A DNA stretch of 64,000 bases from Candidatus Curtissbacteria bacterium RIFOXYA1_FULL_41_14 (GTDB lineage Bacteria; Patescibacteriota; Microgenomatia; Curtissbacterales; GWA2-41-24): contig MFCA01000029.1 of NCBI GenBank assembly GCA_001775095.1, positions 55,975 to 119,974 of the forward strand, in the 5' to 3' direction. A program made the position numbers and the translations under genes. Each line of letters begins with the position of its first letter. Position 1 is the first letter of the stretch. The notes under the pieces are model-generated. The model worked only from the letters and a program-made list of their open reading frames with translations, was not told the DNA's origin and did no database searches. Shown piece after piece: positions 15,894-48,314 of the stretch.

Positions 15894-17330
15894 CTACCTC
15901 CCTATACATTCTTTAAACATCTCGACAATGACATAATCTTGCGTTTGGTCAATAACCTTACAATGCTTGATAAGATTCTGAATACCGGCATCTGCAACAT
16001 CGACTGATACCAGATATTTAGTACCCTCATCTATAAATTTTTCAAGTGGCCTGTCGACGATGGGGTAGCCATGTCGATTTGTCTGATAAAGAAAAGCGGC
16101 ATCGCCGTTATAAGGTGCGATAACCGTGGCATCTTTTGGAAGAAGTTGATCAACAGCCTTGCCTGCTTTGACTATTTGCGGCTTGTTTATCCAATAAAAA
16201 CCGCGTACTTCAAAAGTGCCAAAAGCAAAGGTCAGAACAATTAAAATAATTGCGATGGGATAACTAATGATTCTGTTAAAAGACTGAGCCGGGAGGGCTA
16301 AAAGGTTTTTAGTGCCAACCGCCATAAAAATCGCAGCGATTGGAATAAACGGCACTTGATAGTAGTCGTGGCGAATATTACCGGATGCAAAAACCACGAA
16401 GTATATAGCTACAGAAGCCAGCCATGTAAGGTAAAATGATTTTTCCTGCAGCTGGGGTTTTTTTAAAATCCCTAAAACAAAGAGAGAGAAGCCAGGTACA
16501 GTCAAGATTAATTTTCCCATCCGCTCGGCGATCAACCAGCGAAAAAATGCGCCTTTAAAACGAATATTTCCCTCATTTAGAAGAAATCGCCAATTGGGAA
16601 TACCTTGGGGAAACTGAGTCATCCAAATACGCCATAAAACAAAAGGTAAAAGGGATAAAAGTGCAAATAGCCACAATTTGTAATTTCTGAAAAGCGAGAT
16701 TCCAAATTTATCATAGGCCAAATACAAGGCAGGCAAGAAGAAAAAAATGGCAATTGGCCAAGTGAGAATTGCTAAATTAGCAAAGACTATAGATAAAATG
16801 AACCAAATTAACTTTTGATTCTCGAGCCATTTTAAAAAAGTTAAATAAAGACCTAAAATCCCTAAAACCATCAGTGGTCCCGGCAAAACTGCTGAAGAAT
16901 AAAAAATGTTATATGGCAAGAAAGCGAAGAAAAATGCCGACAAGAGTGCAGTCTGAGTACCGGAAAAGTGTTTGACTAAAAAATATAGAAGAAGTGTCGA
17001 GATGAGAGAAATCACGACAGTAGTTAATCGTGCATAAGTCTCATTTACGCCAGTTATTGACCAAACGCCGGCCACAAGCGTGTTATAAGTAGGAAATTCA
17101 ACGAAACGATATCTTTGGGGATTATCAAGGCCGTTGGCTTGAGACGACATATCGTCATATCGAGGAATAAATGGATTAAAACCCTCCTTAATAAAATTTC
17201 GGGCAACCGCAGCAGTGTCTGCTTGTCTCCATGAATGCCAGTCTGCTATTGGCCGGTTAATTTTATAGAGGCGAATTACAAAGGCAAGAATCAGGATTAT
17301 TGAGAGGACAATAATTTCGACTTTTCTCAT
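15894..17330 (-). CDS. polytopic membrane glycosyltransferase, GT-C fold (ArnT/PMT_2-like)
   Basis: About 12 predicted TM helices. First-loop motif WHSWRQADTAAVARNF aligns with the DE-x-x-(Y/H)A loop of the paralogs at 24871, 34081 and 38077. Confidence 0.45.
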   Translation of the reverse strand: MRKVEIIVLSIILILAFVIRLYKINRPIADWHSWRQADTAAVARNFIKEGFNPFIPRYDDMSSQANGLDNPQRYRFVEFPTYNTLVAGVWSITGVNETYARLTTVVISLISTLLLYFLVKHFSGTQTALLSAFFFAFLPYNIFYSSAVLPGPLMVLGILGLYLTFLKWLENQKLIWFILSIVFANLAILTWPIAIFFFLPALYLAYDKFGISLFRNYKLWLFALLSLLPFVLWRIWMTQFPQGIPNWRFLLNEGNIRFKGAFFRWLIAERMGKLILTVPGFSLFVLGILKKPQLQEKSFYLTWLASVAIYFVVFASGNIRHDYYQVPFIPIAAIFMAVGTKNLLALPAQSFNRIISYPIAIILIVLTFAFGTFEVRGFYWINKPQIVKAGKAVDQLLPKDATVIAPYNGDAAFLYQTNRHGYPIVDRPLEKFIDEGTKYLVSVDVADAGIQNLIKHCKVIDQTQDYVIVEMFKECIGR

Positions 17331-17422
17331 TTGTTAAACTCCAAACTCTAAACCCTAAATTCCAAATAATATCAAAATTTCAAATTTGAAGGTTTAGAGT
17401 TTTTGAATTTAGGCATCTGAAT
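17331..17422. repeat. family A copy 4 (short form)
   Basis: aaactctaaaccctaaattccaaa ... ttgaaggtttagagtttttgaatttagg inverted repeat. Lacks the central segment of copies 2 and 3. Confidence 0.45.
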
Positions 17423-19087
17423 TTATTTGGAATTTGTGATTTGTGATTTGAGATTTACTTTTGTTGTGGTTGCTAATTTAACTGTAGCCAAAAGTATGGC
17501 CACCATGATCCAAAAAGTGTAAGCTACCTTGGAGGCTTCAAAAACATCGATATAAAGAGAGTTAACAAGAAGACCTAAGGTGGCAGCGATCAAAGCGGCG
17601 ACGAGAGTCGAGGCAAAAGGATCGTTAATTTTTTTAAAGTTAACAAGAGAATACCAGATAATAAAGGCGATTATTCCAAAAAAGGCCAAAAATCCTGAAA
17701 GACCGGTCTCCCCAAGGGCTCTTAAAAAATCATTGTCCGTTGACTCAGCCTCTGTAAAATCTTCGATATTTCTTTTGGTTAAAGTTGAATAACCGGAGCC
17801 AAAAATCGGATTGCGGGTAAATCCTTTAATTGCTTGGGGCCAAGTGTAATCGAGACGGATTCCGGTTGACAGGTCGTATTGAACCGCAGCTTGTGAGTAA
17901 ACTCGGGGTTTTGCAGCCAGTGTGGCCGGCAAACTTTCCCCTTCTCCATATTCAGGGACGTCCTCATAAACGTCGGCAGGTACTGCACCAGTAACCGGCG
18001 ATCCAGTGGTTGGTTTTTGAGTAGTGGGAGGTGTATCCGATTTTGAGCCGACATCTTTTCCGATATCAAGATAAGCCGCTTGGGCTCCACCTGGAGGTTC
18101 CTTTTTAAGAGGTTTCAGAGCAAATGAGGTTTTGAACGCGTCTAATTTCAGGACATGGGCAAAACGGTCTGAAAGATCGCCAAAAGAAATCATGACAACA
18201 AGAGAAAAAACAATCACAATTGACCAGCGAGAAACACTCCAAAGCCAACCTCTCTTAAGGATCAATAAGCTAAAAACAATTGTTATCGAAACTAGATAGG
18301 CCAAAAAAGATGTTCGTGAAACGGTTAGAATCAAAAGCCAAAAGCCGGCCAGGCTAACAATCAAAAAAAGTAGCTTATGAGTGATTTTCTTAAGAATGGT
18401 AATTAGGGGAATGAAAATCGTCAGAACAATCATTAAATAGGCTGCTAAATCATAGTGGCCACCGAAAGTTGACAGTACCCTAGCATGCTCAGTCAGATAG
18501 AGTTTTACACCTTTGGAAAACTCTCGATTCATCGTCGAAAATGCCGGCCAATAAAGGTACTTTTGGCCGAATCCGTAGATCGAAACTCCCAAAAGGACAA
18601 CGGCAGCAAGAAAGATATATTTTTTTATCTGAGCTAACGATTTTATGGATGAGAAAAATATAAAAAAGACCGAAAAATATTCCACTCTTCTTATGAAATG
18701 CAAATAGAGTTTTTCCATATGAAGTGCCTGAACAGGAACAGTTTTAGTCCAAAAAAGGGCGGAAAGTGTAGAGAGAAAACCAACAATAACATAGACACCA
18801 ATGGGAATAAACAAGGGGTTACCTCTAAGAGTTACTTTTTTTCGGATAAGCCAGATTACCCAAATACCGAATGCTAGTGCTACTAAAAGATCATCCGGCC
18901 TAAGTCTTACTAAATAGCCGGGGATAAGGTCCGCAATCGGAATTTTGGGGTAAAGTGGAATAAAAATAAGAAGAGCAAGAGATAAATATTCAAGGATGTG
19001 ATCATCGAGCCATGTTAAACCAGGCTTAAACCGCCTTAAAAGCTTCGACATACGATTTTGCAAGCTCCTTTCTTCCCAAGAGACCAA
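17423..19087 (-). CDS. O-antigen ligase / polymerase-like (Wzy_C domain) membrane protein with Pro/Thr-rich extracytoplasmic linker
   Basis: Multi-TM protein with GHYDLAAYLMIV...TVSRTSFLAYLVSITIVFSLLIL resembling the Wzy_C/WaaL core. PTTQKPTTGSPVTGAVP low-complexity loop. Confidence 0.5.
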   Translation of the reverse strand: MVSWEERSLQNRMSKLLRRFKPGLTWLDDHILEYLSLALLIFIPLYPKIPIADLIPGYLVRLRPDDLLVALAFGIWVIWLIRKKVTLRGNPLFIPIGVYVIVGFLSTLSALFWTKTVPVQALHMEKLYLHFIRRVEYFSVFFIFFSSIKSLAQIKKYIFLAAVVLLGVSIYGFGQKYLYWPAFSTMNREFSKGVKLYLTEHARVLSTFGGHYDLAAYLMIVLTIFIPLITILKKITHKLLFLIVSLAGFWLLILTVSRTSFLAYLVSITIVFSLLILKRGWLWSVSRWSIVIVFSLVVMISFGDLSDRFAHVLKLDAFKTSFALKPLKKEPPGGAQAAYLDIGKDVGSKSDTPPTTQKPTTGSPVTGAVPADVYEDVPEYGEGESLPATLAAKPRVYSQAAVQYDLSTGIRLDYTWPQAIKGFTRNPIFGSGYSTLTKRNIEDFTEAESTDNDFLRALGETGLSGFLAFFGIIAFIIWYSLVNFKKINDPFASTLVAALIAATLGLLVNSLYIDVFEASKVAYTFWIMVAILLATVKLATTTKVNLKSQITNSK

Positions 19088-19967
19088 AAACTATTATTCG
19101 TGCTAGTGCTCCTATTTTAAGTAAGAGACGGACAATTTGCAAAGAAAATTTGCCTTTGTATTTTTGGTAAAAATACAGGACAGCTTTGTATTCGCCAATA
19201 AATGCTGAGGTTGGAATTTTCCGACTTGACCCTCTGCCAATGTGAATGATTTTTGTTGTGGGTGTAAAGTAGATTTTATGTCCTGCATTTTTGATGCGCC
19301 AGCACCATTCAACTTCTTCCCCGTACATAAAAATCTTTTCATCTAAAGAATCTACTTTGGTAATAACATCTCTAGGGACTAAGATTGCCGCGCCTGTTAC
19401 CCAATCGACTTTCTGATCTTTTCTATAAAAACTGTCATGGTCGACATGATACGGTTTTAATAAAGTTCCGCCGGGAAGATCATCAATAAAACTCATCCAC
19501 CAGAAGACTTGGGGCAGATGAGGGAAGAATCCTACGGACTGTTGGATAGATCTGTCTTCATTTAATAATAACGGACCAATTGCTCCCAAGTCCCCTCTTA
19601 TGCTTCGAGCTTTGTCGAGAAGTTTCTCTAATGAGTTTTCAATTAAATAAGTATCTGAATTTAGAAGTAGAATATATTCCCCTTTCGCAATTTTAATTCC
19701 TTGATTATTGGCTTTAGTAAATCCCAAATTTGCTTTGTTGAGTATCAACTTCGCTTTCGGAAATTTCTCTTTCACCATTGTCTGACTGCCGTCTGTTGAT
19801 CCATTATCGGCAACAATAACCTCGAAACTGATGTTCTTTCCTCGCTTTTCGTCATCCCGAGCGTCAGCGAGGGATCTGTCATTATTCGTGTACCGATAGA
19901 TTGACTCAAGACAATCCTCGAGGAGCCTTTTTGTGTTCCAATTGACGATAATGACACTCAAGTCCAT
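19026..19967 (-). CDS. glycosyltransferase family 2 carrying an in-frame repeat-derived insert
   Basis: MDLSVIIVNWNT...FEVIVADNGSTDGS...WCWRIKNAGHKIYFTP. About 17 extra residues (NNDRSLADARDDEKRGK) relative to paralog 13646-14533 coincide with the repeat at 19859-19893. Confidence 0.8.
   Translation of the reverse strand: MDLSVIIVNWNTKRLLEDCLESIYRYTNNDRSLADARDDEKRGKNISFEVIVADNGSTDGSQTMVKEKFPKAKLILNKANLGFTKANNQGIKIAKGEYILLLNSDTYLIENSLEKLLDKARSIRGDLGAIGPLLLNEDRSIQQSVGFFPHLPQVFWWMSFIDDLPGGTLLKPYHVDHDSFYRKDQKVDWVTGAAILVPRDVITKVDSLDEKIFMYGEEVEWCWRIKNAGHKIYFTPTTKIIHIGRGSSRKIPTSAFIGEYKAVLYFYQKYKGKFSLQIVRLLLKIGALARIIVFGLLGRKELAKSYVEAFKAV
19859..19893. repeat. family B element inserted in-frame in a GT2 gene
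   Basis: cgtcatcccgagcgtcagcgagggatctgtcatt. Shares gtcatcc(c/t)gag and ggatct cores with 705-795. Confidence 0.55.
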
Positions 19968-20857
19968 ATTTTTCCTTTTGCTACCATAATATATCGATAA
20001 GAAGTTGCTAAAAAGACTCCCGTAATTATTAACAGTGCACCTAAAATCAGATTTAATTTAAGTTTTTCACCAAATAAAATAACCCCAAATATACTCGACA
20101 AAATCGTTTGCATATAGATATTAAGAGATGAAATAAAAGCCGATGTGTTCTTAATCAGAAATTGGTAACCTACAATAAATAGCAAAGCTATGATCGCTAA
20201 GCTCACTGCCATCAAATTTATTTTAAGATTAAAACTGTAGTTTAACTTCCCATTAGCTATTAAGGGTCCGAGGGCAAGAATGGAGATCATACATGCCACC
20301 ATAAAATTAGTGAGAGTAATTTCCCATGGATTAAATTTTCGAGTATTTTTTTTCGAGATGACAATATAAAGTGACCACGTAAGTACTGCAATACCTATTA
20401 AAAGATTGCCGAGTGGTCTGCCAAAAGATAAAATATCAGCCGTTTTGAATGAATTCCAAATTAATATGCTTACTCCAACCAAAGATAGGAGAAGACCAAC
20501 TATCTGGTTACCGGTTAATTTTTCTTTTAAGAAAAAATATCCGAGAATTGCCACTATTAAAGGGGTAAGCACATATAGGAGCATCCCCACTATTAAACTG
20601 GTGTATTGAATACCAATCGCATATAAAATTACATTGACTGAGAAAAGAATACCGGTACTGATCAAGAATTTATCAGAAATTAATTTCTTTATTAATTGTC
20701 TTTTAAATACAAACGGAGCAATTATCAAAAGACCGAGAAAGAAGCGAATTGCGACAATGGTTAATGGATCAAGATGAAATACTAATAACTTTACCAGAGT
20801 ACCAACGGTAGCTCCTATAAGGCTCGTTAAGAAAAATATGCCAAGATTTGAAAACAT
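19958..20857 (-). CDS. EamA/DMT-superfamily transporter
   Basis: Ten TM helices in two repeated halves, 299 aa. Typical drug/metabolite transporter architecture. Confidence 0.55.
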   Translation of the reverse strand: MFSNLGIFFLTSLIGATVGTLVKLLVFHLDPLTIVAIRFFLGLLIIAPFVFKRQLIKKLISDKFLISTGILFSVNVILYAIGIQYTSLIVGMLLYVLTPLIVAILGYFFLKEKLTGNQIVGLLLSLVGVSILIWNSFKTADILSFGRPLGNLLIGIAVLTWSLYIVISKKNTRKFNPWEITLTNFMVACMISILALGPLIANGKLNYSFNLKINLMAVSLAIIALLFIVGYQFLIKNTSAFISSLNIYMQTILSSIFGVILFGEKLKLNLILGALLIITGVFLATSYRYIMVAKGKIWT

Positions 20858-21453
20858 TATTGGAATAGCCTGGCGCGGCCGAGTTTGTAATGGGGGTCTT
20901 TGTTTTTTCGTTCTCCGATTACTTTGGCAGGAACGCCGCCGACAATTTCAAAAGGTTTAACCTCTGAGGTAACTACTGCACCGGCTGCTATCACTGAACC
21001 TTTGCCGATTTTTACCCCCGGCAAGATAGTCGCACGAGGACCAATAAAAACATAATCTTCTATTTCTACTTCCCCGTAGGTCGGATCAAAACCCTCAGAA
21101 TTGATATCGTGTTCCGAATTATAAATTAAAACTTGGGATGCTATATCTACATGGTTGCCAATTCGAAGCGGCGCTCGGCCATCTAAAAAACAGTGATCGC
21201 CTACAATTGTACCTTGGCCGATACGTACTCCATGAGGGTAAAAAAACCTAACACCCATATGTATAAATGAATGTTTCCCGATTTTGACGCCGGCTAGTCT
21301 TAGGAAAAAATTTCTAATTGAATGTAAGGGGATAAGCGCGCAAATCACTGCAAGAACCATTAGCTCGATATCCAAAAGAATATGGAAGACTCTTATAAGA
21401 ATTTTGGCAAGAACTTCCATTGCATTTAACTCCGTACCCATTCGGTCTTTCAT
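20857..21453 (-). CDS. hexapeptide-repeat (LbH) O-acetyltransferase, WcaF/WbbJ-like
   Basis: Left-handed beta-helix hexapeptide repeats (IGQGTIVGDHCFL..IGNHVDIAS..FIGPRATILPGVKIGKGSVIAAGAVV). Confidence 0.75.
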   Translation of the reverse strand: MKDRMGTELNAMEVLAKILIRVFHILLDIELMVLAVICALIPLHSIRNFFLRLAGVKIGKHSFIHMGVRFFYPHGVRIGQGTIVGDHCFLDGRAPLRIGNHVDIASQVLIYNSEHDINSEGFDPTYGEVEIEDYVFIGPRATILPGVKIGKGSVIAAGAVVTSEVKPFEIVGGVPAKVIGERKNKDPHYKLGRARLFQ

Positions 21454-21676: not shown

Positions 21677-21690
21677 TGTCTTGATCCAAA

Positions 21691-22950
21691 TTATGAAGTT
21701 TTTTCCGAAGCAACTTTTTCGAGGACCTGTAGGGTAATTTTGGCGCATTTTTGCCAGGAAAAGTGCTTGATGTTGGAAAAACCATTTTTGACCAGGTCGG
21801 ATCTGATTTTTGGGTCAAGAGTCTTTTTAATACCGTCGGCTATTGACTGGATACTTTCAGGATTGATAAGTATGGCGCTACACCTAAGATCCACCCCTGG
21901 GGTGTTCTCAGGGTGACGTCCTGACTTCACCTCAGGGGTGAGCGAGTTGGCTCCTACTATTTCCGGCAGACTTGAGGTGTTGGAAACAACAACCGGCACT
22001 CCACAAGCTTGAGCCTCGATAACCGGAATACCAAAGCCTTCCCAAAGCGAAGGCAAGACGTAGGCTCGAGCTCCACTGATCAAAACTGGTAAGTCGGAAT
22101 CGGAAACGTAATCAGTAAAAATAACTTTGTTTTGTAGTCCCAAGGTCTTGACTTTTTTGAAAATTGAATCATAAAGCCAACCTTTCTTGCCGACAATCAC
22201 CAATAATAAGTTGTCGGTTATCGGTTTACGGTTCACGGTTTTTTTATTCCTGTGAACTGTGAACTGCCTGCCCTGAGCGAAGTCGAAGGGTGAACTGTGA
22301 ACTAGAATCTTGAAAGCTTCTAAAAGTCTTTCAAGATTCTTGCGCGGCTGGAGTGTACCGACAAAAATAATGTAATCGCTAGAAATTTTATATTTCTTTT
22401 TCATTCTATCAATAGAATATTTAGATTGCGGCTTGAAGCGATCTTTGTCATACCCCTCATAGGTGACAGTAATCTTCGAAGGAGCGACATTGTAATTTTT
22501 AACAATATCGTCTTTTGTAGTTTGCGAAACAGCAATGATATGGGTTGCTTTTTTGATGGAAGCTTTAGTACCAAAAGTCAGCTGAATAAGATCGCTTTTT
22601 TTAAAAAGTTCTGAATAATGTAGAAATGAAAGATCATGGATAGTTACTACTTGCGGCACTGGACAGATCCTTGGAAGGTAATGAGCAGTTGAGAAGTAAA
22701 CACTTGTTCTTTTGTTGACGATTAGGTGCAATGGTAAGGCGAGTTGAGTCCAGAACTTCCTAGGTCCGAGAACTTTGTACTGAAAGCTGGCAATAGGTTT
22801 TGGTAAATCAGGAAGTGGTTTGTCCTTAAGGTAAACAATAAACTGATGTCTTTTGTCTTTAACAAATTGCCAAAGTAGTTCAAAAGCGTATTGACCGGTA
22901 CCAACTCTGGTTCGTACATTTGCTTCATTTCCGTCTATTCCTATAAGCAT
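21691..22950 (-). CDS. glycosyltransferase family 4 carrying an in-frame repeat-derived insert
   Basis: MLIGIDGNEANV N-terminus and PSLWEGFGIPVIEAQACGVPVV motif. Extra loop SSPFDFAQGRQFTVHRNKKTVNRKPITDN is encoded by repeat 22224-22304. Confidence 0.8.
   Translation of the reverse strand: MLIGIDGNEANVRTRVGTGQYAFELLWQFVKDKRHQFIVYLKDKPLPDLPKPIASFQYKVLGPRKFWTQLALPLHLIVNKRTSVYFSTAHYLPRICPVPQVVTIHDLSFLHYSELFKKSDLIQLTFGTKASIKKATHIIAVSQTTKDDIVKNYNVAPSKITVTYEGYDKDRFKPQSKYSIDRMKKKYKISSDYIIFVGTLQPRKNLERLLEAFKILVHSSPFDFAQGRQFTVHRNKKTVNRKPITDNLLLVIVGKKGWLYDSIFKKVKTLGLQNKVIFTDYVSDSDLPVLISGARAYVLPSLWEGFGIPVIEAQACGVPVVVSNTSSLPEIVGANSLTPEVKSGRHPENTPGVDLRCSAILINPESIQSIADGIKKTLDPKIRSDLVKNGFSNIKHFSWQKCAKITLQVLEKVASEKTS
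22224..22304. repeat. composite element (gtgaact direct repeats flanking ccctgagcgaagtcgaaggg core) inserted in-frame in a GT4 gene
   Basis: ggttcacgg...ctgtgaactgtgaactg-cctgccctgagcgaagtcgaaggg-tgaactgtgaactag. Core is 20/21 identical to 731-750. A coreless version (gtgaaccgttgactgtgaaccgtgaact) sits at the homologous site of GT4 12395-13594. Confidence 0.55.
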
Positions 22951-23001: not shown

Positions 23002-24141
23002 TCACTTTTCACTGCTTTTAACCACCTCCTCATAGACTTTTAAAGTTTCCTTAGCGGTCTTAATCCAGGTATATTGCCTTGCTCGATTTAGGCTAGCATT
23101 AACCATCTTCTGATAACTATCCAAGTTTAAATTTAAAACCATCTCGATTGCTCGCTTTATCTGGCTTTCGCTTCTTGGATCAACAAGAATTGCAGCATCC
23201 TTGGCAATTTCGGTCATGGAAGAATTATTGGAGGTAATTACCGGTGTACCACAAGCCATTGCTTCGAGAATTGGCAGACCAAATCCTTCATAAAGCGATG
23301 GATAAACAAAAACCCGGCACCCACTATAGAGTGCCGTAAGATCATCTCTCGGAATGAAACCTGTTGAAACAATTCGATCATTGTCCTTGAAACTAGGGTC
23401 TTGCCCCCATCCATGCTTCCCGGTTAAAACTAAACTTAAATTAGGATTTTCTTTCTGAATTTTTTCAAAGACATCGACTAATTTTTGAATATTTTTTCTC
23501 GGTTCCCAAGTTGCAACTGATAAAATGTAAGGCTTTTTAATTTTGTATTTTTCTAAAACTTCTTTTACTTTGTCATCATCCTGGGGTTTGAAAATCACAG
23601 AAGAAGCAAGATAGACGACGGTTACTTTTTCTTGGGGAATTTCTAAAAATTTCACAAGATCCTCTTTGGTCGTTTCGGAATCTGTAATAATCGCATCAAC
23701 TTCGGCTTTAACAATTTTAAGTCTTCGTTTCTGATTAGAAACTATTTTTGGGTGAGAAGAAGATGGAAAAAGATATGCAATCATGTCATGGACAGTGGTT
23801 ACTTTTTTTGTACGTTGCGACCTTACAGGGGGTTGCGTCCAATCGGATGAATGAAATACGTCAACTTCACCAAGAAATTTTTCTATGGGAAAGATATGCA
23901 ACTTATTCCAAAGAAATGCTAAAAGAAAGGGCGGATAATGGGTAATTTTGAACTCGACATTTTTGTATTGGGAAAGTTGTTTTTTGAAACCGGTCAATTT
24001 TTTATTGAGCCTCAGGGAAGATCCAAAAAGGATGTATTGATTTTTTCGATCAATTTTTAAGAGTGCTTCTACCAACTGCTTAGTATAATTTGAAACCCCG
24101 GTCCCGTAAACGATTTGAGAAATATCAATACCGATTTTCAT
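23002..24141 (-). CDS. glycosyltransferase family 4
   Basis: MKIGIDISQIVYGTG and PSLYEGFGLPILEAMACGTPVI motifs. No repeat insert. Confidence 0.85.
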   Translation of the reverse strand: MKIGIDISQIVYGTGVSNYTKQLVEALLKIDRKNQYILFGSSLRLNKKLTGFKKQLSQYKNVEFKITHYPPFLLAFLWNKLHIFPIEKFLGEVDVFHSSDWTQPPVRSQRTKKVTTVHDMIAYLFPSSSHPKIVSNQKRRLKIVKAEVDAIITDSETTKEDLVKFLEIPQEKVTVVYLASSVIFKPQDDDKVKEVLEKYKIKKPYILSVATWEPRKNIQKLVDVFEKIQKENPNLSLVLTGKHGWGQDPSFKDNDRIVSTGFIPRDDLTALYSGCRVFVYPSLYEGFGLPILEAMACGTPVITSNNSSMTEIAKDAAILVDPRSESQIKRAIEMVLNLNLDSYQKMVNASLNRARQYTWIKTAKETLKVYEEVVKSSEK

Positions 24142-37455: not shown

Positions 37456-37992
37456 TTAAAGTTTGCGGATTACTTTGGCAGGTACTCCCGCAACAAGCGT
37501 TTTTGAGGGAACATTTTTTGTTACCACGCTGCCAGCTGCAACAAAAGACATTTCTCCGATTATGACTCCCGGCAAAATGGTACTTGCGGCGCCGACAGCG
37601 CTACCGCTTTTGACGATTACAGCACGTGAACTTTTTGGAAACTTTGTCTGCAATGGGTGGTTTTTATAACCTACATTGAGATGAGTCAGGATCGTAACAT
37701 TTTGGGCTATAGTCACTTGATCTTCCAGGATTACTTGGTCATAAAGATCGATCAAAGTTTTATCCCCGATAAAACATTCTTCGCCAACTTCTAATCCCCC
37801 AGGCCCCCTGTGATGCCAATTAAAAAAATTAACATTCATTAAGATTGAGTGGTTACCAATTTTTGCACCTAAAAGAACTAAGAATATTTTTCTTAAAGGC
37901 GGCAGGAGACAAAGGCAATAAATTGTTTGCAAAAAACTAAAAAATATAAACTTTAAAGTTTTTTTAAAACCAATTTCGTCAACTATTCTCAT
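37456..37992 (-). CDS. hexapeptide-repeat O-acetyltransferase, paralog of 20857-21453
   Basis: LbH repeats (ILTHLNVG...VIVKSGSAVGAASTILPGVIIGEMSFVAAGSVVTKNV). C-terminus aligns with the paralog (GGVPAKVIGERK / AGVPAKVIRKL). Confidence 0.7.
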   Translation of the reverse strand: MRIVDEIGFKKTLKFIFFSFLQTIYCLCLLPPLRKIFLVLLGAKIGNHSILMNVNFFNWHHRGPGGLEVGEECFIGDKTLIDLYDQVILEDQVTIAQNVTILTHLNVGYKNHPLQTKFPKSSRAVIVKSGSAVGAASTILPGVIIGEMSFVAAGSVVTKNVPSKTLVAGVPAKVIRKL

Positions 37993-41036: not shown

Positions 41037-42600
41037 TTAATTTCCTGACTGTGATTGCGCCGTTAATATCTATCTCTTTAGTTAATTTATAGCTGTCGAA
41101 GTTTTTGAGCCAGGAATCTTTGGTGTAAAATTCATTTTGCTCGCTGTTTTCGAGAATTAAGTAAATTGTCGAGGCGATTTTGCCGTTTGAATATAATTCT
41201 TTATTCCTGACATATCGAGGTTGATTAGGTAAATAAGCAAAATCCACAGGTAAGCCTTTTTTAAATCTTACTCCCTGCCACCAAAATAAATATTGATAGG
41301 AAAAATCGTAAATAGGCGGTGTATAAACATAGACAGAAAACGGTTTTCCTTGACTATCGTCGTAAATATACTCTATCGCCGCTAACTGATTGGAAAGTTG
41401 CGCCGGGTCGTTCTTCGCATTGGCAGTTCTTTCATCTTTAGCATAAGGAAAAATATTTAAACCCAGGAATAAAACCACGAAAACAACAGCCGCAGCTTTA
41501 TTTCTGATCCCGACAAGTGCATATACGATTAAAAAGGCCACAAAAATAAAAGTTCCGTACAAATACCAAGTTTTTATTTCTACGGTAATAAAGACCGAGA
41601 AAACTATAAAAATAATCAGCAGAGAAACAACATTTATTTTTAGTAAAATATGCAAATTTTTATCCCTATCAGTCTTGATAAAATGATAAAGTCCAAATCC
41701 GATTAACAAAAGTATCAGCAATGCAATAATATTGGATTGAGGAGAAACACTTTCCTTGAAAAGTTCAAAAAAGATACCGGCTCTATCTAAGATCCTTGGA
41801 AGGAACGGCAATTGCCCGGACAAAGATGGATTGTTCCCCGCAAAATATGCAAGCAAAGACCGCGTTTGAATAAAGTTATTGCGAAGTTCAAACAGAATTT
41901 GAGGGGTAAAGGGCAAGACATAAGCAAAAAAAGATATTGCGGCAATCTTAAATAATTTCCTTGTGCGGTAGAGTTTAAAGTAAAAAAAGATAAAGATGGG
42001 AATAAAAGTAAAAACAACAGCGGACGGAGGTTCTGTATGGTAAATCAGGCTCACTGACAAAAAAGATGCTGAAATAAACAAAGGATTTTTTGTGACAGCC
42101 AGGAATAAAAAATATATCATACAAAGAGTCAAAATAGGGGTAATATTAGCCGGGAAGGCAAAAAGAGAAAGATTGATCATTTGAGAACTAAAAAGAATAA
42201 TAATTGAGAAGATAAGGGCGTAAAACCGCGACAAATATTTATGAAACCAACAGTATGCTAAAAAACCTGTCAGTGAGAGTGAGAGTGAAACGGTAATAAC
42301 TGCAGACAGCGGATGGCCATTCGATAAGAAAAGGGGTATTGATAAAAAATAGTACCATAAAGGCCCAAAGTAGACACCCCAAATACTTGCAGCGGGACCA
42401 ATTAAAGTGGGTTCTTTATAGAAGACTATGTCTTTGGCCCAAAGCAAATCACGGCCCATGTCGTAGGCGAATGGTACCGAATCTCTAATGACTATAAGCA
42501 ATCTAAGTAAAAATGCAAGACCAGCAAGTAAGATGATCAATTCGCTCAATTCTAACAAATTCTTCCGCAAAACTGGTATATTTGGAAAGTTATGAAGCAA
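41026..42600 (-). CDS. polytopic membrane protein, GT-C-like (TTG start in track, start uncertain)
   Basis: About 13 TM helices. Loop FAYDMGRDLLWAKDIV. Genomic position next to GT2 and methyltransferase is like other GT-C sets here. Confidence 0.35.
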   Translation of the reverse strand: MLHNFPNIPVLRKNLLELSELIILLAGLAFLLRLLIVIRDSVPFAYDMGRDLLWAKDIVFYKEPTLIGPAASIWGVYFGPLWYYFLSIPLFLSNGHPLSAVITVSLSLSLTGFLAYCWFHKYLSRFYALIFSIIILFSSQMINLSLFAFPANITPILTLCMIYFLFLAVTKNPLFISASFLSVSLIYHTEPPSAVVFTFIPIFIFFYFKLYRTRKLFKIAAISFFAYVLPFTPQILFELRNNFIQTRSLLAYFAGNNPSLSGQLPFLPRILDRAGIFFELFKESVSPQSNIIALLILLLIGFGLYHFIKTDRDKNLHILLKINVVSLLIIFIVFSVFITVEIKTWYLYGTFIFVAFLIVYALVGIRNKAAAVVFVVLFLGLNIFPYAKDERTANAKNDPAQLSNQLAAIEYIYDDSQGKPFSVYVYTPPIYDFSYQYLFWWQGVRFKKGLPVDFAYLPNQPRYVRNKELYSNGKIASTIYLILENSEQNEFYTKDSWLKNFDSYKLTKEIDINGAITVRKLNGI

Positions 42601-43905
42601 AGATCCTGGAGGTTTGATATCTTTTTATTTTTCCTGTTGTTTTTCGCAAGCTTAATAATATTTAGAGATTCTTTATCTACTTTTTTTGTTCAGGACGATT
42701 TTATTTTAATCAACCAGTTCTCTCAAAATAGTCTTTTGCAGGATATCAAAAATGTTTTCGGCCTCCCGCAAGTTACCCATTGGCGTCCAATTCACAATTT
42801 ATTTTTTTTAATAGCCGGTAATATTTTTGACAAAAATTATGTCGGATATCATCTTCTGACTTTTCTTTTTCAAATCGGATCAGGCTTTTTAATCTATAAA
42901 GTTGTCCGAATGTTAACTAGAGATCATAAAAGCGGATTGATCGCTGGACTTATCTATACAATCCACCCTGCTCATTTTATCTCTCTTTTTTGGATTTCCG
43001 GTTCAGCAACGGTTATTGGATTTTTCTTTTTAGTTACTTCGTTCTATTGTTATTTTGTTGATAGAAAAATCGCATCTTTAATATTATATGTAATCTCTTT
43101 ACTTGCTTCTGAAGCAATGGTAGTCGGTCTGGCAATATTTACATCTTATGAATTTTTATTCAAAAAAGAAAAAACTGATAAGTTTTTATTAACAATAACT
43201 GGAATTATGTCGGTAATTTTTCTGATAATAAGGTTTGTCTTTTTTACCCCGAAAGTGACTATTGATGTTTATCAACTTGAGTTATCCGCTAAAGTTCTTA
43301 ACGCTATAAAATATTATCTTTTAAGGACAGCCGGATTTGCAGAAGCATCTGGAGATAAAATCGTCTCTCTCATACTTTTTGGCTGGCTGACTTTGATTAT
43401 TTTATTGCTATTCAAAAGTTTGAACAAAAAACAAAATATTAACCTGTTGATATTTTCAATCGTCACGATTATTGCGGGATTTTCCCCATTTATTCTAATT
43501 CCTTCCCATCTTTCTCCACACTACATGAATGTTTCGATATTTGGTTTTGCAATAATAATCGGGCTAGCACTAAAGCAGTTAAGGCCGGTGACGTCTTTTG
43601 TATTTTTGTTAATATTTTTAGGGATTTCTATCTACAATATCAATTTGACGAAAAGTAATAACTGGGTTTTCAAAAGGGCTGACTTAGCAAAGGCTTACGT
43701 CGAACAAATTGAGAAAGAAAATTCCCTTCCGGAAAGTAAACTCGTTTTTGCAGACAATAAAATGTCAACTTCACAAGAGGCTTATATCGCACTGGGAACT
43801 GGCGAGGCAATAAAATTTTGGTTTAAAGATAAAAATTACAGGATGTGTTTTACGTTTTTTGAAAACTGTGATTTTAGCCAAAATAAAATTTTTATTTTAG
43901 ACTAG
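42592..43905 (+). CDS. polytopic membrane protein, GT-C-like (QDD motif)
   Basis: Loop FFVQDDFILINQ...HWRPIHNLFF, then about 10 TM helices. One of only two plus-strand genes inside the minus-strand block. Confidence 0.35.
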   Translation: MKQRSWRFDIFLFFLLFFASLIIFRDSLSTFFVQDDFILINQFSQNSLLQDIKNVFGLPQVTHWRPIHNLFFLIAGNIFDKNYVGYHLLTFLFQIGSGFLIYKVVRMLTRDHKSGLIAGLIYTIHPAHFISLFWISGSATVIGFFFLVTSFYCYFVDRKIASLILYVISLLASEAMVVGLAIFTSYEFLFKKEKTDKFLLTITGIMSVIFLIIRFVFFTPKVTIDVYQLELSAKVLNAIKYYLLRTAGFAEASGDKIVSLILFGWLTLIILLLFKSLNKKQNINLLIFSIVTIIAGFSPFILIPSHLSPHYMNVSIFGFAIIIGLALKQLRPVTSFVFLLIFLGISIYNINLTKSNNWVFKRADLAKAYVEQIEKENSLPESKLVFADNKMSTSQEAYIALGTGEAIKFWFKDKNYRMCFTFFENCDFSQNKIFILD

Positions 43906-45296
43906 TTTTTCTTTCTTCGCTTCACGAGATTCACTCTCATTCCCTGCATGAATAACCACCATAAATAAAGAATCGATAATGTTAAAATCGAAATAATCGC
44001 TCCTTTTTGAAACTCTCTTTTAAAGATTAATTCTGGTGAGCCGTCAGTCTTTGACATATTTAATTTAAGAGGTGTGGTGAGTTGTTTTTCGGAAAGGTTC
44101 TCTAAACCCTCAAGGACTATCTGGGAATTTTCCCAAATGAAATATTTATTAAACACTAAGATTTGCTGAATGATAACAGAGGTGATTATTGCTGTGAATA
44201 AAATAACTTTAAAATAGTTATTGAGTCTTTTTGTTATTAACTCATATCCGAAAGCGGCAAGAGATGCTGCAGCAAAAGTACTTACAAGTGCAAATCTGGC
44301 GGGTGCGCGAAAGGGAAAGTCTGGAATATGAGCAACTATCCAATAGGGCTTAAAGTATCCTCCAAAACTTATCAGCAAAAAAATGGCCCAAATTATATAT
44401 AAAGCTCCGACAGTTTTTATATTTCTGTTTTTGAAAATAATTACAATTGGCAATAGGGCTAATAAAAATGGAGCTGTCCAGATTGTAATATTTAGTTCCC
44501 AAAAGCCTCCACCAATTTGAGTAAAACCTAAATCGTCACCTGGTCGAGAAACACCAAAGACACCCGGCAGTAGATAAGTAATAAGATGAGACTCCGGAAG
44601 TGAATAAGAGAAATGAATCGCAATACCCCAGTCTTGACGCTGAGAAATTGTAAAGAGTCGTGCGGTAGGTAAAAGCTGAATAGCGCTTAGGCCAAGTCCT
44701 AAAATTGTAAAAAAAATGACCATTAAAATTTTTTTGGTTACTTGAAAAAAGTTTTGTTTTTTAAGAATTGACAAAATGAAGACGTATGATAAATAGCCGG
44801 CAATACTTGTTAGGGCAATTTGAACGTGACCAGCTGTAATTTGAAGATATATTAAAAATGGTAACAGAAAAAGTGAATTGGTATTTTTAGACGATTTCTG
44901 GATGATCAAGAACCCCCAAGGCATGAGTGATGCCGTAAAAATGATTGAGGGCTGAAAATATCTGCTCACTATAAAACCTGAAAGAATAAAAATAAGCCCT
45001 CCCAACAGACTTCCTAGTTTGCTGCAGTTGTTCTCTTGCAGGAAAAAGTAAGTGCCGGCGATGGCGATAATCGCGTAGGACAAATAAAGTAAATTCACAG
45101 AGACTGAAAAAGGAAAGATAAATAAAATCAACGAGTTTATAGGAGAAAGAATACCCGTTTCCCCTTCAGCAAGAAGTGGGTATCCATTTTGGTAAAGCAA
45201 GGGAACCCAATGAGGAATTTGCAGATTTTTTAAGTAACCGGAAATGAGATAATACCAGGGTAAGTATTGAGTTATAAGGTCGGAAGTGTAAAACAT
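43902..45296 (-). CDS. polytopic membrane protein, YfhO-like
   Basis: N-terminal loop PHWVPLLYQNGYPLLAEGETGILSPINSL resembles 28567-30534. About 12 TM helices. Confidence 0.35.
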   Translation of the reverse strand: MFYTSDLITQYLPWYYLISGYLKNLQIPHWVPLLYQNGYPLLAEGETGILSPINSLILFIFPFSVSVNLLYLSYAIIAIAGTYFFLQENNCSKLGSLLGGLIFILSGFIVSRYFQPSIIFTASLMPWGFLIIQKSSKNTNSLFLLPFLIYLQITAGHVQIALTSIAGYLSYVFILSILKKQNFFQVTKKILMVIFFTILGLGLSAIQLLPTARLFTISQRQDWGIAIHFSYSLPESHLITYLLPGVFGVSRPGDDLGFTQIGGGFWELNITIWTAPFLLALLPIVIIFKNRNIKTVGALYIIWAIFLLISFGGYFKPYWIVAHIPDFPFRAPARFALVSTFAAASLAAFGYELITKRLNNYFKVILFTAIITSVIIQQILVFNKYFIWENSQIVLEGLENLSEKQLTTPLKLNMSKTDGSPELIFKREFQKGAIISILTLSILYLWWLFMQGMRVNLVKRRKKN

Positions 45297-45306
45297 TCGT
45301 TTATAG

Positions 45307-46869
45307 TTATTGAAAAATTCTCTTCCTAAAAGCTACCAATATTAGCGAGACAAGAGTGGAAGTTAAAGTGGAAAAATTTGCGATTTTTCTAACTGGTGAT
45401 TCTTCAAAGAAAACATCTACAGATCTTTTGCCGGGTGCAAGGTTGAAACTGATTAATCCGTCTTCCTGATAAAAACTGTGTTTTTTACCATCGACCTTTA
45501 CGTTCCATCCCGGGAAATATAATTTCCTTACGATTAAATTGTCGTCTTGATTTAATTTCGCATCGAAGGAAATTCGATAAGGATTACTTTTTACATTCAT
45601 AATCTCTACTTGATTTGAATGATCAATTAGAGGTCTTTGGCTGTATGTTTTATTATTAGTCCAAATAGTGTCAAATTCGTTTTGAGTAGTGAGGGTTGGT
45701 GTTGGAATGCTGTGGACTACTTGATTTGGCTTGATGAAGTAATGGCGAGAGGTGTAAATTGCCAAGGCGATTATAAAAATAGCAAGTAATTTTTTATGTT
45801 TCACTTTATTTATTAGGTGAACGCTTAAGAATGCTGATGAGATGAGCGCAATTGAAAGAAATCTCCACGGGTAAAGCACGTAGTCAAGAGGTTTAATGTT
45901 TTCCCAAAGCAGTCTTGATGACGGATGGATTAAAAAGATCGAGACTAAAAAAACAGAAATAAGCAGAGTTGTGTCAGTATTTCTCTTTTTAATCCATAAT
46001 GCCAAGCTAAATACAAAAATTATTGAGGACGTTATCCCAATTTGAAAGGGTGTACCAATATTCACTCCTTCCCCGGGTATTCTTAAGATCTGGAATATGT
46101 TCAAGAAATGACCTTTATAAAGTTCCAGCAAGTTCTGGTCAAATTTTAAGAAATTTTTTTCAAATACTGCCGGCATCCACTGAAAAGAAGACATTAAGAT
46201 TCCCAAGAGCACTGAGAGGATTATTATTTTAATTGTTTTTATTCCTGGCTTCATAATAAATACAAAGTATAGAAAGTAAAATGGTATAAAGATAAAAAAG
46301 ATTACCGGGTGAGAAGTTACAAGTCCGAACGTCGCAATTGCCAATAAAAAAAATCCAATACCTTTATTCTTAATAATTAGGTGAAGGGAAAATAAGAACA
46401 TAACAGAAAATAATACGGCTGTTGATTCTCCAAGTGATGCTCTGGAATAAAGATTAGCGAATCTATAAGGAAGATAGCTGAAAACTAAGGCTCCTGTTAA
46501 ACTTGCAATGTTTGATGAGATATTTTTGAACAGGAAAAAAGCGAAAATACCGCTTAACAAAAAAGTAACCGATAAAACTGATTTAAAAGCTAAAGTCGAA
46601 TTATTACTTATTTGCATAAAAATTTCTGCAAGATAATACGGTAGCTGATAATTGACAACAAACAAGGGGTAGCCAATACCGTTTAAAATCGTTGGGGCGA
46701 GTCTGGGAGGAACTTGGCCAAGATCAATACTTTGATGAAACTGGTCAATTCTCGCTATATGATATAGTCCATCATGGCTTGGAAAGATTGGGCTAGCAAG
46801 TAAAAGATATTGCGATGGGAGAAGGAGAATTAAAAATATTATTAAATATTTGAATGTTTTTAGGTCCAT
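45307..46869 (-). CDS. polytopic membrane glycosyltransferase-like protein with YfhO-like C-terminal domain
   Basis: Loop SHDGLYHIARIDQF...GIGYPLFVVNYQLPYYL. C-terminal extracytoplasmic region with YFPGWNVKVDGK motif. Confidence 0.4.
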   Translation of the reverse strand: MDLKTFKYLIIFLILLLPSQYLLLASPIFPSHDGLYHIARIDQFHQSIDLGQVPPRLAPTILNGIGYPLFVVNYQLPYYLAEIFMQISNNSTLAFKSVLSVTFLLSGIFAFFLFKNISSNIASLTGALVFSYLPYRFANLYSRASLGESTAVLFSVMFLFSLHLIIKNKGIGFFLLAIATFGLVTSHPVIFFIFIPFYFLYFVFIMKPGIKTIKIIILSVLLGILMSSFQWMPAVFEKNFLKFDQNLLELYKGHFLNIFQILRIPGEGVNIGTPFQIGITSSIIFVFSLALWIKKRNTDTTLLISVFLVSIFLIHPSSRLLWENIKPLDYVLYPWRFLSIALISSAFLSVHLINKVKHKKLLAIFIIALAIYTSRHYFIKPNQVVHSIPTPTLTTQNEFDTIWTNNKTYSQRPLIDHSNQVEIMNVKSNPYRISFDAKLNQDDNLIVRKLYFPGWNVKVDGKKHSFYQEDGLISFNLAPGKRSVDVFFEESPVRKIANFSTLTSTLVSLILVAFRKRIFQ

Positions 46870-48314
46870 TGTTATTTGCTAGAATGATAAAAGATAAAAT
46901 GACGACTTACAAGAACAAAACAGATTCCCATGTTCTTGAGGCCGTGATTCTTTCTCCATTGCTTAAGATTTACCACGTAAAACCTGGAATAAATTATTTA
47001 TTAACAGCGATTTTTTTACTTATGGGTATTTTAAACCCCGTAAATAACAACTCAGTTGATCTGTCTATAGGCTTTTTTACCTTTGGATTCGCATCCTTTC
47101 TTATTCTAGATTTTAAATTCAAACCTTGGTCTGTAATTCTATTTTCGGTAAGTGGATCAATGATTTTTTGGCTAATAAAAGATTTCAATTATTTAACTTT
47201 TTTGTCCTCAACTTGCGGAATTCTAGCCGCTTTTTTAATTAATAGATTTAGATTGGTCAATTTTGCAATCTGGGTTTTGATTATTTCCTTTTTATTGGCC
47301 TCTTGGTTTACCAGTAAAAACTTAAGAACTATTCTGGACAGCGATTTATCTGGATATGCTTACAACAATGATCCAGGAACTTTTTTAAAAACTTATTTTT
47401 TGATTGAGCGGAATGTAAATTATTATGATGCCTACCAACAAGCTTTTCTTGGAAGATTTGGCTCAAGTATCATACCTTCAGATATTTGGGGATGGCGATT
47501 GCCAACGAGTTTCATGTTGTGGAAGTTTTTACCAGGCTCCTCAGCTCTCTCGATTTATTATCTTTATTTAATGCTGGCTGCGAGTGTTCTTTACGTCTCT
47601 TTCAAAATCGGGAGTCACTACTTGGGATCCATCTCTGGTTTACTTTCTAGTTATCTTATATTTCCTTATTTGCATTATGGAGCAAGAGACATAATGTTTT
47701 TAATCACCGAGTGGTGGTCTATCTCATTCTTTATCTTAGGAATATATTTTTTGATTTATAGAAAACTTTTTCTTGCCATACTTTTATTTTCATTAACCTT
47801 AATGACAAGAGAAATTTATATATTACCACTAGGTCTGATGTTTATTTACGCATTCTTACTTAAAAGAAGAATTGTTCCAGTATTTGCAATACCAATAGCT
47901 GCCTTTTCATTGTTATTTTTCTATCACATTTCGCGAGTAAATCTATATATTGATGCTTGGCAAACATTATTTACACCAAGAACCGTAACTGATGGATTAT
48001 TTTTTATACAGCAAACTTTGGCTTTTGCATCGGGGGAATATTTGTTTTACTATTTCAGACCATTCTCTATTTTTCTTTTATTTGCGATTGTTAGCTCTTT
48101 AATTCTGACTAGGATGAGGGGTTTTAGAGAAAACGGAGTAATCTGGATTCTTGCGTATTTACCCTTCCCTGTCTCTTATTTAAGATTTGGTACATTACCC
48201 TTCAACGATTATTGGGGAATTATGTATGTTCCGCTCGTAATCATCTTGACACCCGTTTCTTTGATGTTTTTTGAGAATCGGCGATTAGGAAAAGATTCTA
48301 CCCAGGGTGATTAA
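46854..48314 (+). CDS. polytopic membrane protein, unknown family
   Basis: About 12 TM helices, plus strand. Start uncertain. Confidence 0.3.
   Translation: MFLGPLLFARMIKDKMTTYKNKTDSHVLEAVILSPLLKIYHVKPGINYLLTAIFLLMGILNPVNNNSVDLSIGFFTFGFASFLILDFKFKPWSVILFSVSGSMIFWLIKDFNYLTFLSSTCGILAAFLINRFRLVNFAIWVLIISFLLASWFTSKNLRTILDSDLSGYAYNNDPGTFLKTYFLIERNVNYYDAYQQAFLGRFGSSIIPSDIWGWRLPTSFMLWKFLPGSSALSIYYLYLMLAASVLYVSFKIGSHYLGSISGLLSSYLIFPYLHYGARDIMFLITEWWSISFFILGIYFLIYRKLFLAILLFSLTLMTREIYILPLGLMFIYAFLLKRRIVPVFAIPIAAFSLLFFYHISRVNLYIDAWQTLFTPRTVTDGLFFIQQTLAFASGEYLFYYFRPFSIFLLFAIVSSLILTRMRGFRENGVIWILAYLPFPVSYLRFGTLPFNDYWGIMYVPLVIILTPVSLMFFENRRLGKDSTQGD

Follow-up and report, generated by a model that had tools for sequence, protein, structure and literature searches.

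Twelve divergent GT-C-type membrane proteins and four putative polyprenyl-phosphate sugar synthases in a probable envelope-glycan gene cluster of Candidatus Curtissbacteria

Synthesis of a polyprenyl-phosphate-linked sugar followed by its transfer by a membrane glycosyltransferase of the GT-C type has precedent in the Gtr, CsbB/YfhO and Arn systems and in the mycobacterial pathways that use polyprenyl-phosphate-mannose and decaprenyl-phosphate-arabinose (PPM/DPA); the three-component versions are GtrA/GtrB/GtrC, known from the O-antigen of Shigella and Salmonella, and CsbB/GtcA/YfhO, known from the teichoic acids of Bacillus and Listeria (PMC11127046, PMC5836110, PMC8035078). Here we analysed a stretch of 64,000 nucleotides (the window) from Candidatus Curtissbacteria bacterium RIFOXYA1_FULL_41_14 (contig MFCA01000029.1, positions 55,975 to 119,974), for which a first reading of the sequence, hereafter the original prediction, had proposed at least ten polytopic GT-C-type proteins between 15894 and 48314. 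We found twelve among the 27 genes of this span, and homology placed them in one cluster with four short glycosyltransferase family 2 (GT2) proteins of the GtrB/DPM1/ArnC class. The span probably forms the middle of a supercluster of about 58 kb (roughly 5569-63459) for glycans of the cell envelope. Our preferred reading, to which we assign a probability of about 70%, is that the short GT2s would load a polyprenyl phosphate, the loaded lipids would be flipped and the GT-Cs would transfer the sugars outside the membrane.

All 56 substantial open reading frames (ORFs) of the window were listed and scanned against Pfam, and nearly all of those between about 5569 and 63459 concern glycan biosynthesis. 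Pfam gathering thresholds were passed by seven of the twelve GT-Cs, namely four PMT_2 proteins (PMT2_A to PMT2_D), YfhO, the DUF2142 protein and the PTPS_related protein (Table 1). There was no Pfam match for X1, X2, U437 and U486, and YfhOw had a sub-threshold match to YfhO only; NCBIfam gave no match for these five or for YfhO, PMT2_C, PMT2_D, DUF2142 and PTPS_related. The motifs singled out by the original prediction are all present: LWLDEG at residue 21 of PMT2_B, YDESIPAF at residue 36 of X1, PDEQAHF at residue 31 of DUF2142 and FYPGW at residue 581 of YfhO. All twelve proteins have 7-11 transmembrane (TM) segments by hydropathy, and the five Pfam-negative ones were placed by predicted fold, profile-profile comparison and paralogy. 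The AlphaFold2 models of X1 and U486 are all-helical bundles. For X1, modelled from 20 homologues (pLDDT 69, pTM 0.76), the top 34 Foldseek matches are all GT-C, with E-values down to 8e-5, and include AglB, STT3, ArnT, Pmt4, PglB, ALG3/9/12, AftA, EmbC and AftD. The U486 model (pLDDT 80.7) likewise has GT-Cs as its top 20 matches and no transporter among them, at weak E-values of 0.011-0.7 and TM-scores of at most 0.46. No meaningful match came from searching the PDB sequences with the family profiles of X1, U486 and U437.

Profile-profile comparison connected the Pfam-negative proteins with the assigned ones. X1 and X2 are paralogs (phmmer 7e-10; hhalign 98.1% over 423 columns), and hhalign linked YfhO with PTPS_related (96.9%) and YfhOw (94.7%), PMT2_B with DUF2142 (95.7%), X1 (95.6%) and PMT2_A (86%), PMT2_C with U437 (89% over about 260 collinear columns), and U437 with U486 (80%). 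The Wzx, EamA and Wzy_C proteins, included as controls in this all-against-all comparison, reached at most 1.4% to anything. For U437, hhalign told nothing against single sequences or X1, and gave links only with profiles of families assembled from related loci; the GT-C fold placement of U437, X2 and YfhOw comes entirely from the hhalign links. The first loop after TM1 carries an acidic residue that is invariant, or near-invariant in the case of U486 D69 (20 of 21 sequences), in the nine families checked. The invariant residues are D24/E25 in PMT2_B (11 sequences), E26 in PMT2_C (14), D31/D33 in YfhO (13), D32/E33 in DUF2142 (15), D35/D36 of the QDD directly after TM1 in U437 (34), and D37/E38, D36 and D33 in the family alignments of X1, PMT2_D and PTPS_related, respectively. 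Judging from the N-terminal K/R residues before TM1, these loops would lie outside the membrane. YfhOw has an invariant D6 in its family alignment. Four of seven family members match Pfam YfhO, so that YfhO-related is the best term for it. In databases the genes of the locus are 'hypothetical' or automatically named RgtA/B/C/D-like, and the UniRef name for relatives of X1, U437 and U486 is 'Glycosyltransferase RgtA/B/C/D-like domain-containing protein'.

The unassigned membrane proteins might instead be transporters, flippases or polymerases, with U486 as the missing flippase or a scaffold. The original prediction had itself named assignment to transporter families as the finding that would overturn it; when the profile searches were run, the count of transporter-family proteins in the span was one (EamA), so that the prediction was not overturned. 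We rejected transporters as a general explanation because EamA, the flippase Wzx and the ABC-2 pair are the only members of transporter families. The case for U486 as a flippase or scaffold draws on the weak Foldseek E-values, on the absence of GtrA from the locus (see below), on matches to EpsG by one U437-family and one U486-family protein, and on fusions. The U486 product is 100% identical to OGE12683.1, from a metagenome-assembled genome of Rifle groundwater, and its family profile retrieved 581 cluster representatives among 1.84 billion proteins. Two distant members of about 1020 aa combine a U486-like domain, a YfhOw-like domain and the YfhO C-terminal domain, with the junction exactly where the stand-alone YfhOw begins, and in two others of about 730 aa a U486-like domain is fused to a synthase-type short GT2. 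These four proteins (P0358, P0372, P0428 and P0437) provide a Rosetta-stone link of the family to a donor synthase and a transferase. Against a flippase or scaffold stand the twenty GT-C fold matches with zero transporters, the profile link to U437 together with a match of the distant-member profile to a U437 counterpart at 1.7e-4, the match of one distant member to PMT_2 at 8.6e-6, the UniRef cluster label, and the invariant D173 (YNNDPG), which follows a TM helix in a loop containing short helices, an arrangement also seen in the first loop of GT-Cs. We therefore consider this alternative improbable, and U486 as a coupling or flipping component instead of a transferase remains a minority reading.

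The longest U486 ORF overlaps the start of the divergent PTPS_related gene by 16 nt (46854-46869); the homologues have 433-471 aa and align from about residue 45, and the true start is probably downstream of 46854. YfhOw could be taken for a pseudogene, and we rejected this since its counterparts are conserved (47-58% identity), intact and likewise start at residue 1 without TM1. A single-sequence scan of metagenome contigs had found nothing, and an alignment-based rescan recovered these counterparts. In the three of these loci whose fetched sequence extends upstream, they directly follow PTPS_related with abutting stop and start codons, which suggests that PTPS_related and the TM1-less YfhOw may form a two-gene split enzyme. 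Taken together, the split and fused architectures suggest that donor synthesis and transfer may be physically coupled.

The four short GT2s have 228-277 aa and zero TM segments. Among all PDB sequences, their best matches were GtrB (5EKP), the Pyrococcus dolichol-phosphate-mannose synthase (DPMS, 5MLZ) and ArnC (9HWJ/9BHC), with E-values from 1e-15 to 3.5e-24. GT2s_248 matched GtrB (1e-18) and DPMS (1.8e-16) best; GT2s_228 DPMS (1.9e-20), then GtrB and ArnC; GT2s_250 DPMS (1.6e-15) and ArnC (2e-10); and GT2s_277 ArnC 9HWJ (3.5e-24 over 223 residues). Two conventional GT2s of 313 and 294 aa served as controls, and their best matches were GalT1 and chondroitin synthase, with GtrB, DPMS and ArnC not listed. 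The best NCBIfam models were PgfS for GT2s_248, AglJ for GT2s_228 and ArnC for GT2s_277, all far below the equivalog cutoffs. These comparisons support assignment of the short GT2s to the polyprenyl-phosphate monosaccharide synthase class. The original prediction had placed four such enzymes in the span; all are of synthase type, and two of them, GT2s_250 and GT2s_277, lie outside it. Three of the four adjoin at least one GT-C gene, the exception being GT2s_277, and the adjacencies GT2s_248-PMT2_C-YfhO, X2-MT3-GT2s_228-DUF2142 and, in relatives, U437-GT2s_250 are conserved.

The genes around GT2s_250 and GT2s_277 resemble the Arn system (ArnB, ArnC and ArnT), which adds aminoarabinose to lipid A. 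The operon of relatives contains a U437 GT-C, a short GT2, a DegT aminotransferase and a short-chain dehydrogenase/reductase (SDR), so that U437-GT2s_250-DegT1-dehydratase appears to mirror ArnT/ArnC/ArnB in logic; GT2s_277, with ArnC as its best match, is in turn followed by an SDR gene and a second DegT gene. Unlike Arn, the window has no ArnA formyltransferase, ArnD deformylase or ArnE/F; Pfam detected no formyltransferase or deformylase domain. DegT1 is by score a dTDP-4-amino-4,6-dideoxygalactose transaminase, not ArnB (220 vs 631 for ArnB; it passes the dTDP-Fuc4N-type transaminase model of NCBIfam), and U437 is not detectably a member of the ArnT family. Bacteria of the Candidate Phyla Radiation (CPR) lack an outer membrane (PMC6744442), and lipid A is therefore not an expected acceptor. 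The CPR-type envelope guessed in the original prediction agrees with the origin of the locus in Candidatus Curtissbacteria, a CPR lineage, to which homologue searches also pointed.

Related loci, numbered here with the prefix L, came from one scan of genome records (16 loci) and, as further contigs, from other routes. Gene order is identical wherever the fetched DNA covers it, with 45-80% identity to the window proteins: ABC-2, Epi2, MT4, Epi1, DegT1, GT2s_250, U437, DUF2142, Hexa2, (PMT2_D), MT2, X1, Wzx, GT2s_248, PMT2_C, YfhO, GT4, GT2, PMT2_B, MT1, GT4, where GT4 stands for glycosyltransferase family 4. The first seven form one same-strand operon in relatives, and in every fetched locus with GT2s_248 this gene stands in a contiguous group with Wzx, PMT2_C and YfhO. 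Most GT-Cs have counterparts of 45-75% identity in other Curtissbacteria. Between themselves, the GT-Cs of the window are at most 26% identical by BLAST or not detectably similar. Because mutual identity is so much lower than the 45-80% to relatives, the set is old, differentiated and inherited vertically. A recent tandem duplication or burst of paralogs was rejected on account of the low identity between paralogs, a fast-evolving serotype island because the set is differentiated and conserved across the lineage, and an assembly chimera because independent assemblies share the gene order. Since the arrangement recurs in loci of other assemblies, the clustering is functional (operonic) and not due to chance.

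Compared with its relatives, the window has an extra X2-MT3-GT2s_228 module and an accessory PTPS_related-YfhOw-U486 module, the latter at the same site in L019 and L020. PTPS_related, the YfhO-like gene, U486, PMT2_D, and X2 with its GT2 and methyltransferase thus make up a variable accessory module inserted at fixed points. The U486-PTPS_related-YfhOw segment (43902-48314) is inverted relative to L020 5047-9350, and PTPS_related and U486 are co-directional and overlapping in L019; the locus has therefore been rearranged repeatedly at one site. In L019 the counterparts of X1 and Wzx are separated by a Y1_Tnp (IS200-like) transposase gene (17521-18183). On a more remote metagenomic contig (L024, Ga0209541_10001161; 17.2 kb fetched), at least seven GT-C-like ORFs alternate with GT4 and methyltransferase genes; two are related to X2 and the others to U437, PTPS_related, PMT2_B, YfhOw and PMT2_A. 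Loci dense in GT-Cs thus occur outside the genome of the window as well. Six records with the Curtissbacteria-type locus (L008, L010, L011, L012, L015 and L017) are titled 'uncultured Gammaproteobacteria' or 'Saccharibacteria', and these titles are probably taxonomic mislabels.

In the preferred reading, the short GT2s would load polyprenyl phosphate with single sugars on the cytoplasmic face. Besides mannose from GDP-mannose, which the predicted ManC can provide, the candidates are two amino sugars, one of them a 4-amino-4,6-dideoxyhexose supplied by the DegT1/Epi1 cassette. The charged lipids would then be flipped, with EamA, Wzx, the product of an unlinked gene and U486 as candidate flippases; EamA is a candidate transporter of lipid-linked sugars or nucleotide sugars, and Wzx more plausibly flips repeat units. 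Outside the membrane, the twelve GT-Cs would attach residues at different positions or through different linkages, the target being an envelope glycopolymer, a surface protein or both, and we favour side branches on a polymer as their role. The four S-adenosylmethionine (SAM) methyltransferases and two hexapeptide acyltransferases, present as predicted along with the Wzx-type flippase, would tailor the sugars.

The likeness to the Gtr and CsbB systems extends to synthase and GT-C genes side by side and, for CsbB/GtcA/YfhO, to one transferase that is a bona fide YfhO-family protein. Unlike phage-borne or accessory serotype-converting cassettes, the genes of the window sit inside the main glycan cluster and are conserved along with it. 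Several observations weigh against the preferred reading. None of the 56 ORFs of the window has a GtrA-family Pfam match, and the window contains no intergenic gap of at least 250 bp and no unassigned small hydrophobic ORF of the right size that could be a GtrA-type gene; the three-component set is therefore incomplete in cis, lacking the GtrA/GtcA-type flippase that Gtr membership calls for. Of the three-component systems put forward in the original prediction, the pairing of synthases with GT-Cs in modules stood, and a GtrA-type flippase was missing. Twelve transferases for four synthases, again unlike Gtr and CsbB, are not a one-to-one pairing and therefore imply shared donors, which contradicts the proposed multiplexing of independent systems. 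The two TM helices at the C-terminus of GtrB are missing from the window synthases, whose scores, far below every NCBIfam equivalog cutoff, support the class and not a donor specificity, so that the donor cannot be assigned from them. The weak fold matches of U486, the missing TM1 of YfhOw, and U437, which is placed without a structural model and has one relative matching the Wzy-like family EpsG at 4e-5, also count against parts of the set. Finally, our analysis identified no acceptor gene.

In mycobacteria, arabinan and mannan are made from DPA and PPM by the Emb, Aft, Mpt and PimE enzymes. Most GT-Cs of the window could similarly act in series to polymerise and branch a major envelope glycan from a few polyprenyl-phosphate-monosaccharide donors. 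Like the mycobacterial and corynebacterial set (EmbA-C, AftA-D, MptA-C, PimE and Pmt), the locus combines many divergent GT-Cs with what would be few lipid-monophosphate donors, only four synthases serving twelve transferases, and its synthases are TM-less like Ppm1/PpgS. In mycobacteria the donors are decaprenyl-phosphate-arabinose and polyprenyl-phosphate-mannose, and here polyprenyl-phosphate-mannose could come from ManC and the DPM1-like GT2s. The fold matches of window proteins include AftA, EmbC, AftD and PimE, and mutually divergent GT-Cs that are each 45-75% conserved suit fixed, non-redundant steps better than variable serotype decoration. Mycobacterial GT-C genes are dispersed over a 4-Mb genome, whereas 32 kb hold all twelve GT-Cs here, in a genome of probably about 1 Mb, and sequence-level orthology was not detected. 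Moreover, homology identified a complete cytoplasmic arm of Wzx/Wzy and ABC type (an initiating phosphoglycosyltransferase, six GT4s, three conventional GT2s, Wzx, a Wzy_C protein and an ABC-2 exporter) that could make the backbone alone, some GT-Cs are accessory and occur in only some relatives, and a lipid-anchor or primer pathway was not identified. We regard such serial assembly as unlikely. A more radical variant, in which Curtissbacteria and perhaps other Microgenomates would build the bulk of a major envelope glycopolymer outside with about a dozen GT-Cs on a few polyprenyl-phosphate-monosaccharides, with U486 replacing GtrA in coupling or flipping, seems rather less probable still; it would amount to an extracytoplasmic assembly line of the mycobacterial kind, packed into a single operon of a genome of about 1 Mb.

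PgfS is the synthase of the Pgf protein glycosylation system of Streptococcus mutans, and AglJ acts in archaeal S-layer N-glycosylation. As both are among the best-scoring models for the short GT2s, some or most of the GT-Cs, together with the Wzy_C protein, might modify S-layer proteins or type IV pilins in the manner of Pmt, PglL/PilO or Pgf. The locus shares with Pgf (PgfS, PgfM1/PgfM2 and PgfE) a short GT2, more than one GT-C and a sugar epimerase, and four proteins have a PMT_2 domain. The Wzy_C domain also occurs in O-oligosaccharyltransferases. CPR genomes are, in addition, enriched in pilins (PMC6744442). In Pfam scans, however, no protein carried PMT (PF02366), MIR or STT3 signatures above threshold and no pilin or S-layer gene was found in the window; the short GT2s scored 57-93 bits against the PgfS equivalog cutoff of 500, NCBIfam scores in general were far below cutoffs, the system is far larger than Pgf, and protein acceptors find no support here. 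Protein glycosylation as the main role is thus very unlikely.

Modification of an envelope glycan by the GT-Cs, as we prefer, uses components that are all of known classes, and it follows the logic of three-component or Arn-like systems already known. By the standard of what is generally known of other bacteria, it is unusual to find twelve GT-Cs so divergent from one another within 32 kb of a genome of probably about 1 Mb. The original prediction had called the number of paralogs in one locus unusual, and the number stands, with the proviso that they are not recent paralogs. Also unusual are the block conservation of GT-Cs in a lineage with genomes of probably about 1 Mb, the five GT-Cs that fall short of curated Pfam and NCBIfam thresholds, and the fusions and splits that involve U486 and YfhOw. 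Literature searches on GT-C expansion turned up no relevant paper for Curtissbacteria, Microgenomates, Patescibacteria or CPR. Members of the CPR are uncultured and ultra-small and probably live attached to hosts, and hardly anything is known of their surface chemistry. About 58 kb of a Curtissbacteria genome would be devoted to envelope glycans, several percent of it if its size is the 1 Mb or so to which the longest contigs of relatives point, and about half of the core genes would encode extracytoplasmic GT-C transferases in a set conserved across the lineage. The four synthases, the twelve transferases and the predicted 4-amino-4,6-dideoxyhexose donor are concrete targets, and the complexes of donor synthesis and transfer hinted at by the fusions may hold in better-studied three-component systems too.

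Table 1. Features of the supercluster, with window coordinates unless a related locus is named.
Feature	Position	Strand	Evidence or remark
Downstream (3'-end) part of minus-strand array	5569-15892	-	DUF4012, three GT4, one GT2, PHP, tandem AcpS
Bac_transf initiating phosphoglycosyltransferase	7418-8068	-	Pfam
ManC, GDP-mannose synthesis	8251-9351	-	Pfam, NCBIfam
PMT2_A: GT-C, PMT_2 family, 478 aa, ~9 TM	15894-17330	-	Pfam PMT_2 47.7 bits (cutoff 26.1)
Wzy_C-domain membrane protein: polymerase, ligase or O-oligosaccharyltransferase class	17423-19087	-	Pfam Wzy_C 46.7 bits
Conventional GT2, 313 aa	19026-19967	-	Pfam GT2; solved matches chondroitin synthase, GalT1
EamA/DMT-superfamily transporter	19958-20857	-	Pfam EamA 114 bits
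Hexapeptide acetyltransferase, WcaF-like	20857-21453	-	Pfam Hexapep; NCBIfam WcaF family 104.7 bits, below cutoff
Two GT4 (GT-B)	21691-22950, 23002-24141	-	Pfam Glycos_transf_1 114 and 118 bits
MT1, SAM methyltransferase	24138-24905	-	Pfam Methyltransf_11
PMT2_B: GT-C, PMT_2 family, LWLDEG loop	24871-26304	-	Pfam PMT_2 75.2 bits
Conventional GT2, 294 aa	26314-27198	-	Pfam GT2; solved matches GalT1, chondroitin synthase
GT4 glycosyltransferase	27204-28367	-	Pfam
YfhO: GT-C, YfhO family (PF09586), C-terminal FYPGW domain	28567-30534	-	Pfam YfhO 43.3 bits (cutoff 28.5)
PMT2_C: GT-C, PMT_2 family	30531-31910	-	Pfam PMT_2 35.5 bits
GT2s_248: short GT2, 248 aa, polyprenyl-phosphate sugar synthase type	32032-32778	-	Solved-structure matches
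Wzx-type (MOP) flippase	32759-34048	-	Pfam Polysacc_synt 66.4 bits
X1: GT-C without Pfam/NCBIfam family, YDES loop	34081-35727	-	Fold, hhalign, conserved D37/E38
MT2, SAM methyltransferase	35741-36304	-	Pfam
PMT2_D: GT-C, PMT_2 family	36301-37452	-	Pfam PMT_2 44.5 bits; in some related loci only
Hexa2: hexapeptide acetyltransferase, WcaF-like	37456-37992	-	Pfam; NCBIfam below cutoff
DUF2142-family GT-C-clan membrane protein, PDEQAHF loop	38077-39666	-	Pfam DUF2142 78.1 bits
GT2s_228: short GT2, 228 aa, polyprenyl-phosphate sugar synthase type	39676-40362	-	Solved-structure matches
MT3, SAM methyltransferase	40347-41036	-	Pfam
X2: GT-C, X1 paralog	41026-42600	-	phmmer, hhalign
U437: probable GT-C, invariant QDD after TM1	42592-43905	+	hhalign, synteny, UniRef name
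YfhOw: YfhO-related GT-C without TM1 and C-terminal domain	43902-45296	-	YfhO 19.4 bits, below cutoff; hhalign
YfhOw counterparts	L020 8001-9350; L021 1226-2584; L022 1655-2741		Abut PTPS_related stop codon
PTPS_related-family GT-C-clan membrane protein	45307-46869	-	Pfam PTPS_related 50.2 bits
U486: divergent, probably GT-C membrane protein	46854-48314	+	AlphaFold2/Foldseek, hhalign, UniRef name
GT2s_250: short GT2, 250 aa, synthase type, beside amino-sugar genes	53414-54166	+	Solved-structure matches
DegT1 aminotransferase	54170-55297	+	NCBIfam dTDP-4-amino-4,6-dideoxygalactose transaminase 381.6 (cutoff 375)
Epi1 (SDR)	55424-56383	+	Best match dTDP-glucose 4,6-dehydratase, below cutoff
MT4, methyltransferase	56262-57035	+	Pfam
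Epi2 (SDR)	57039-57983	+	Best match GalE, below cutoff
GT2s_277: ArnC-like short GT2, 277 aa	57968-58801	+	Solved-structure and NCBIfam best match ArnC
Epi3 (SDR), DegT2 aminotransferase, ABC-2 permease and ATPase, PseB-type dehydratase	58690-63459	+	Pfam
PseB	62464-63459	+	NCBIfam equivalog 457.8 (cutoff 407.75)

The minus-strand array comprises 33 co-directional genes from 42600 down to 5569, which overlap or are separated by spacers mostly below 50 bp, and the plus-strand array runs from 53414 to the end of the window. Nucleotide-sugar supply, by homology, is represented by ManC, two DegT aminotransferases, four SDR enzymes and PseB. The first 5.5 kb are unrelated housekeeping genes (an amidotransferase, a class II aminoacyl-tRNA synthetase and RecO), and no tRNA genes were found in the window. 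The Wzy_C protein had no solved relative among the PDB sequences.

Between the two arrays, an unrelated block at 48285-53310 encodes a VTC domain, a Metallophos protein, an 860-aa CotH kinase-like protein and DUF4956. It interrupts genes that in relatives form one operon, from U437 to ABC, and is missing at this site in L001, L019 and L020. The guanine-plus-cytosine content of the CotH region is 0.425 vs about 0.35 nearby, and the block is possibly a horizontally acquired polyphosphate/CotH module. Within the glycan operon, 10784-12361 encodes a phosphoesterase with a PHP domain and a protein of 262 aa in which two AcpS (4'-phosphopantetheinyl transferase) domains stand in tandem; this hints at a modification that depends on a carrier protein, and no such carrier was seen. 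The minus-strand array closes with the gene for a DUF4012 protein of 603 aa with an N-terminal TM region (5569-7380), which directly follows, on the downstream side, that for the initiating phosphoglycosyltransferase.

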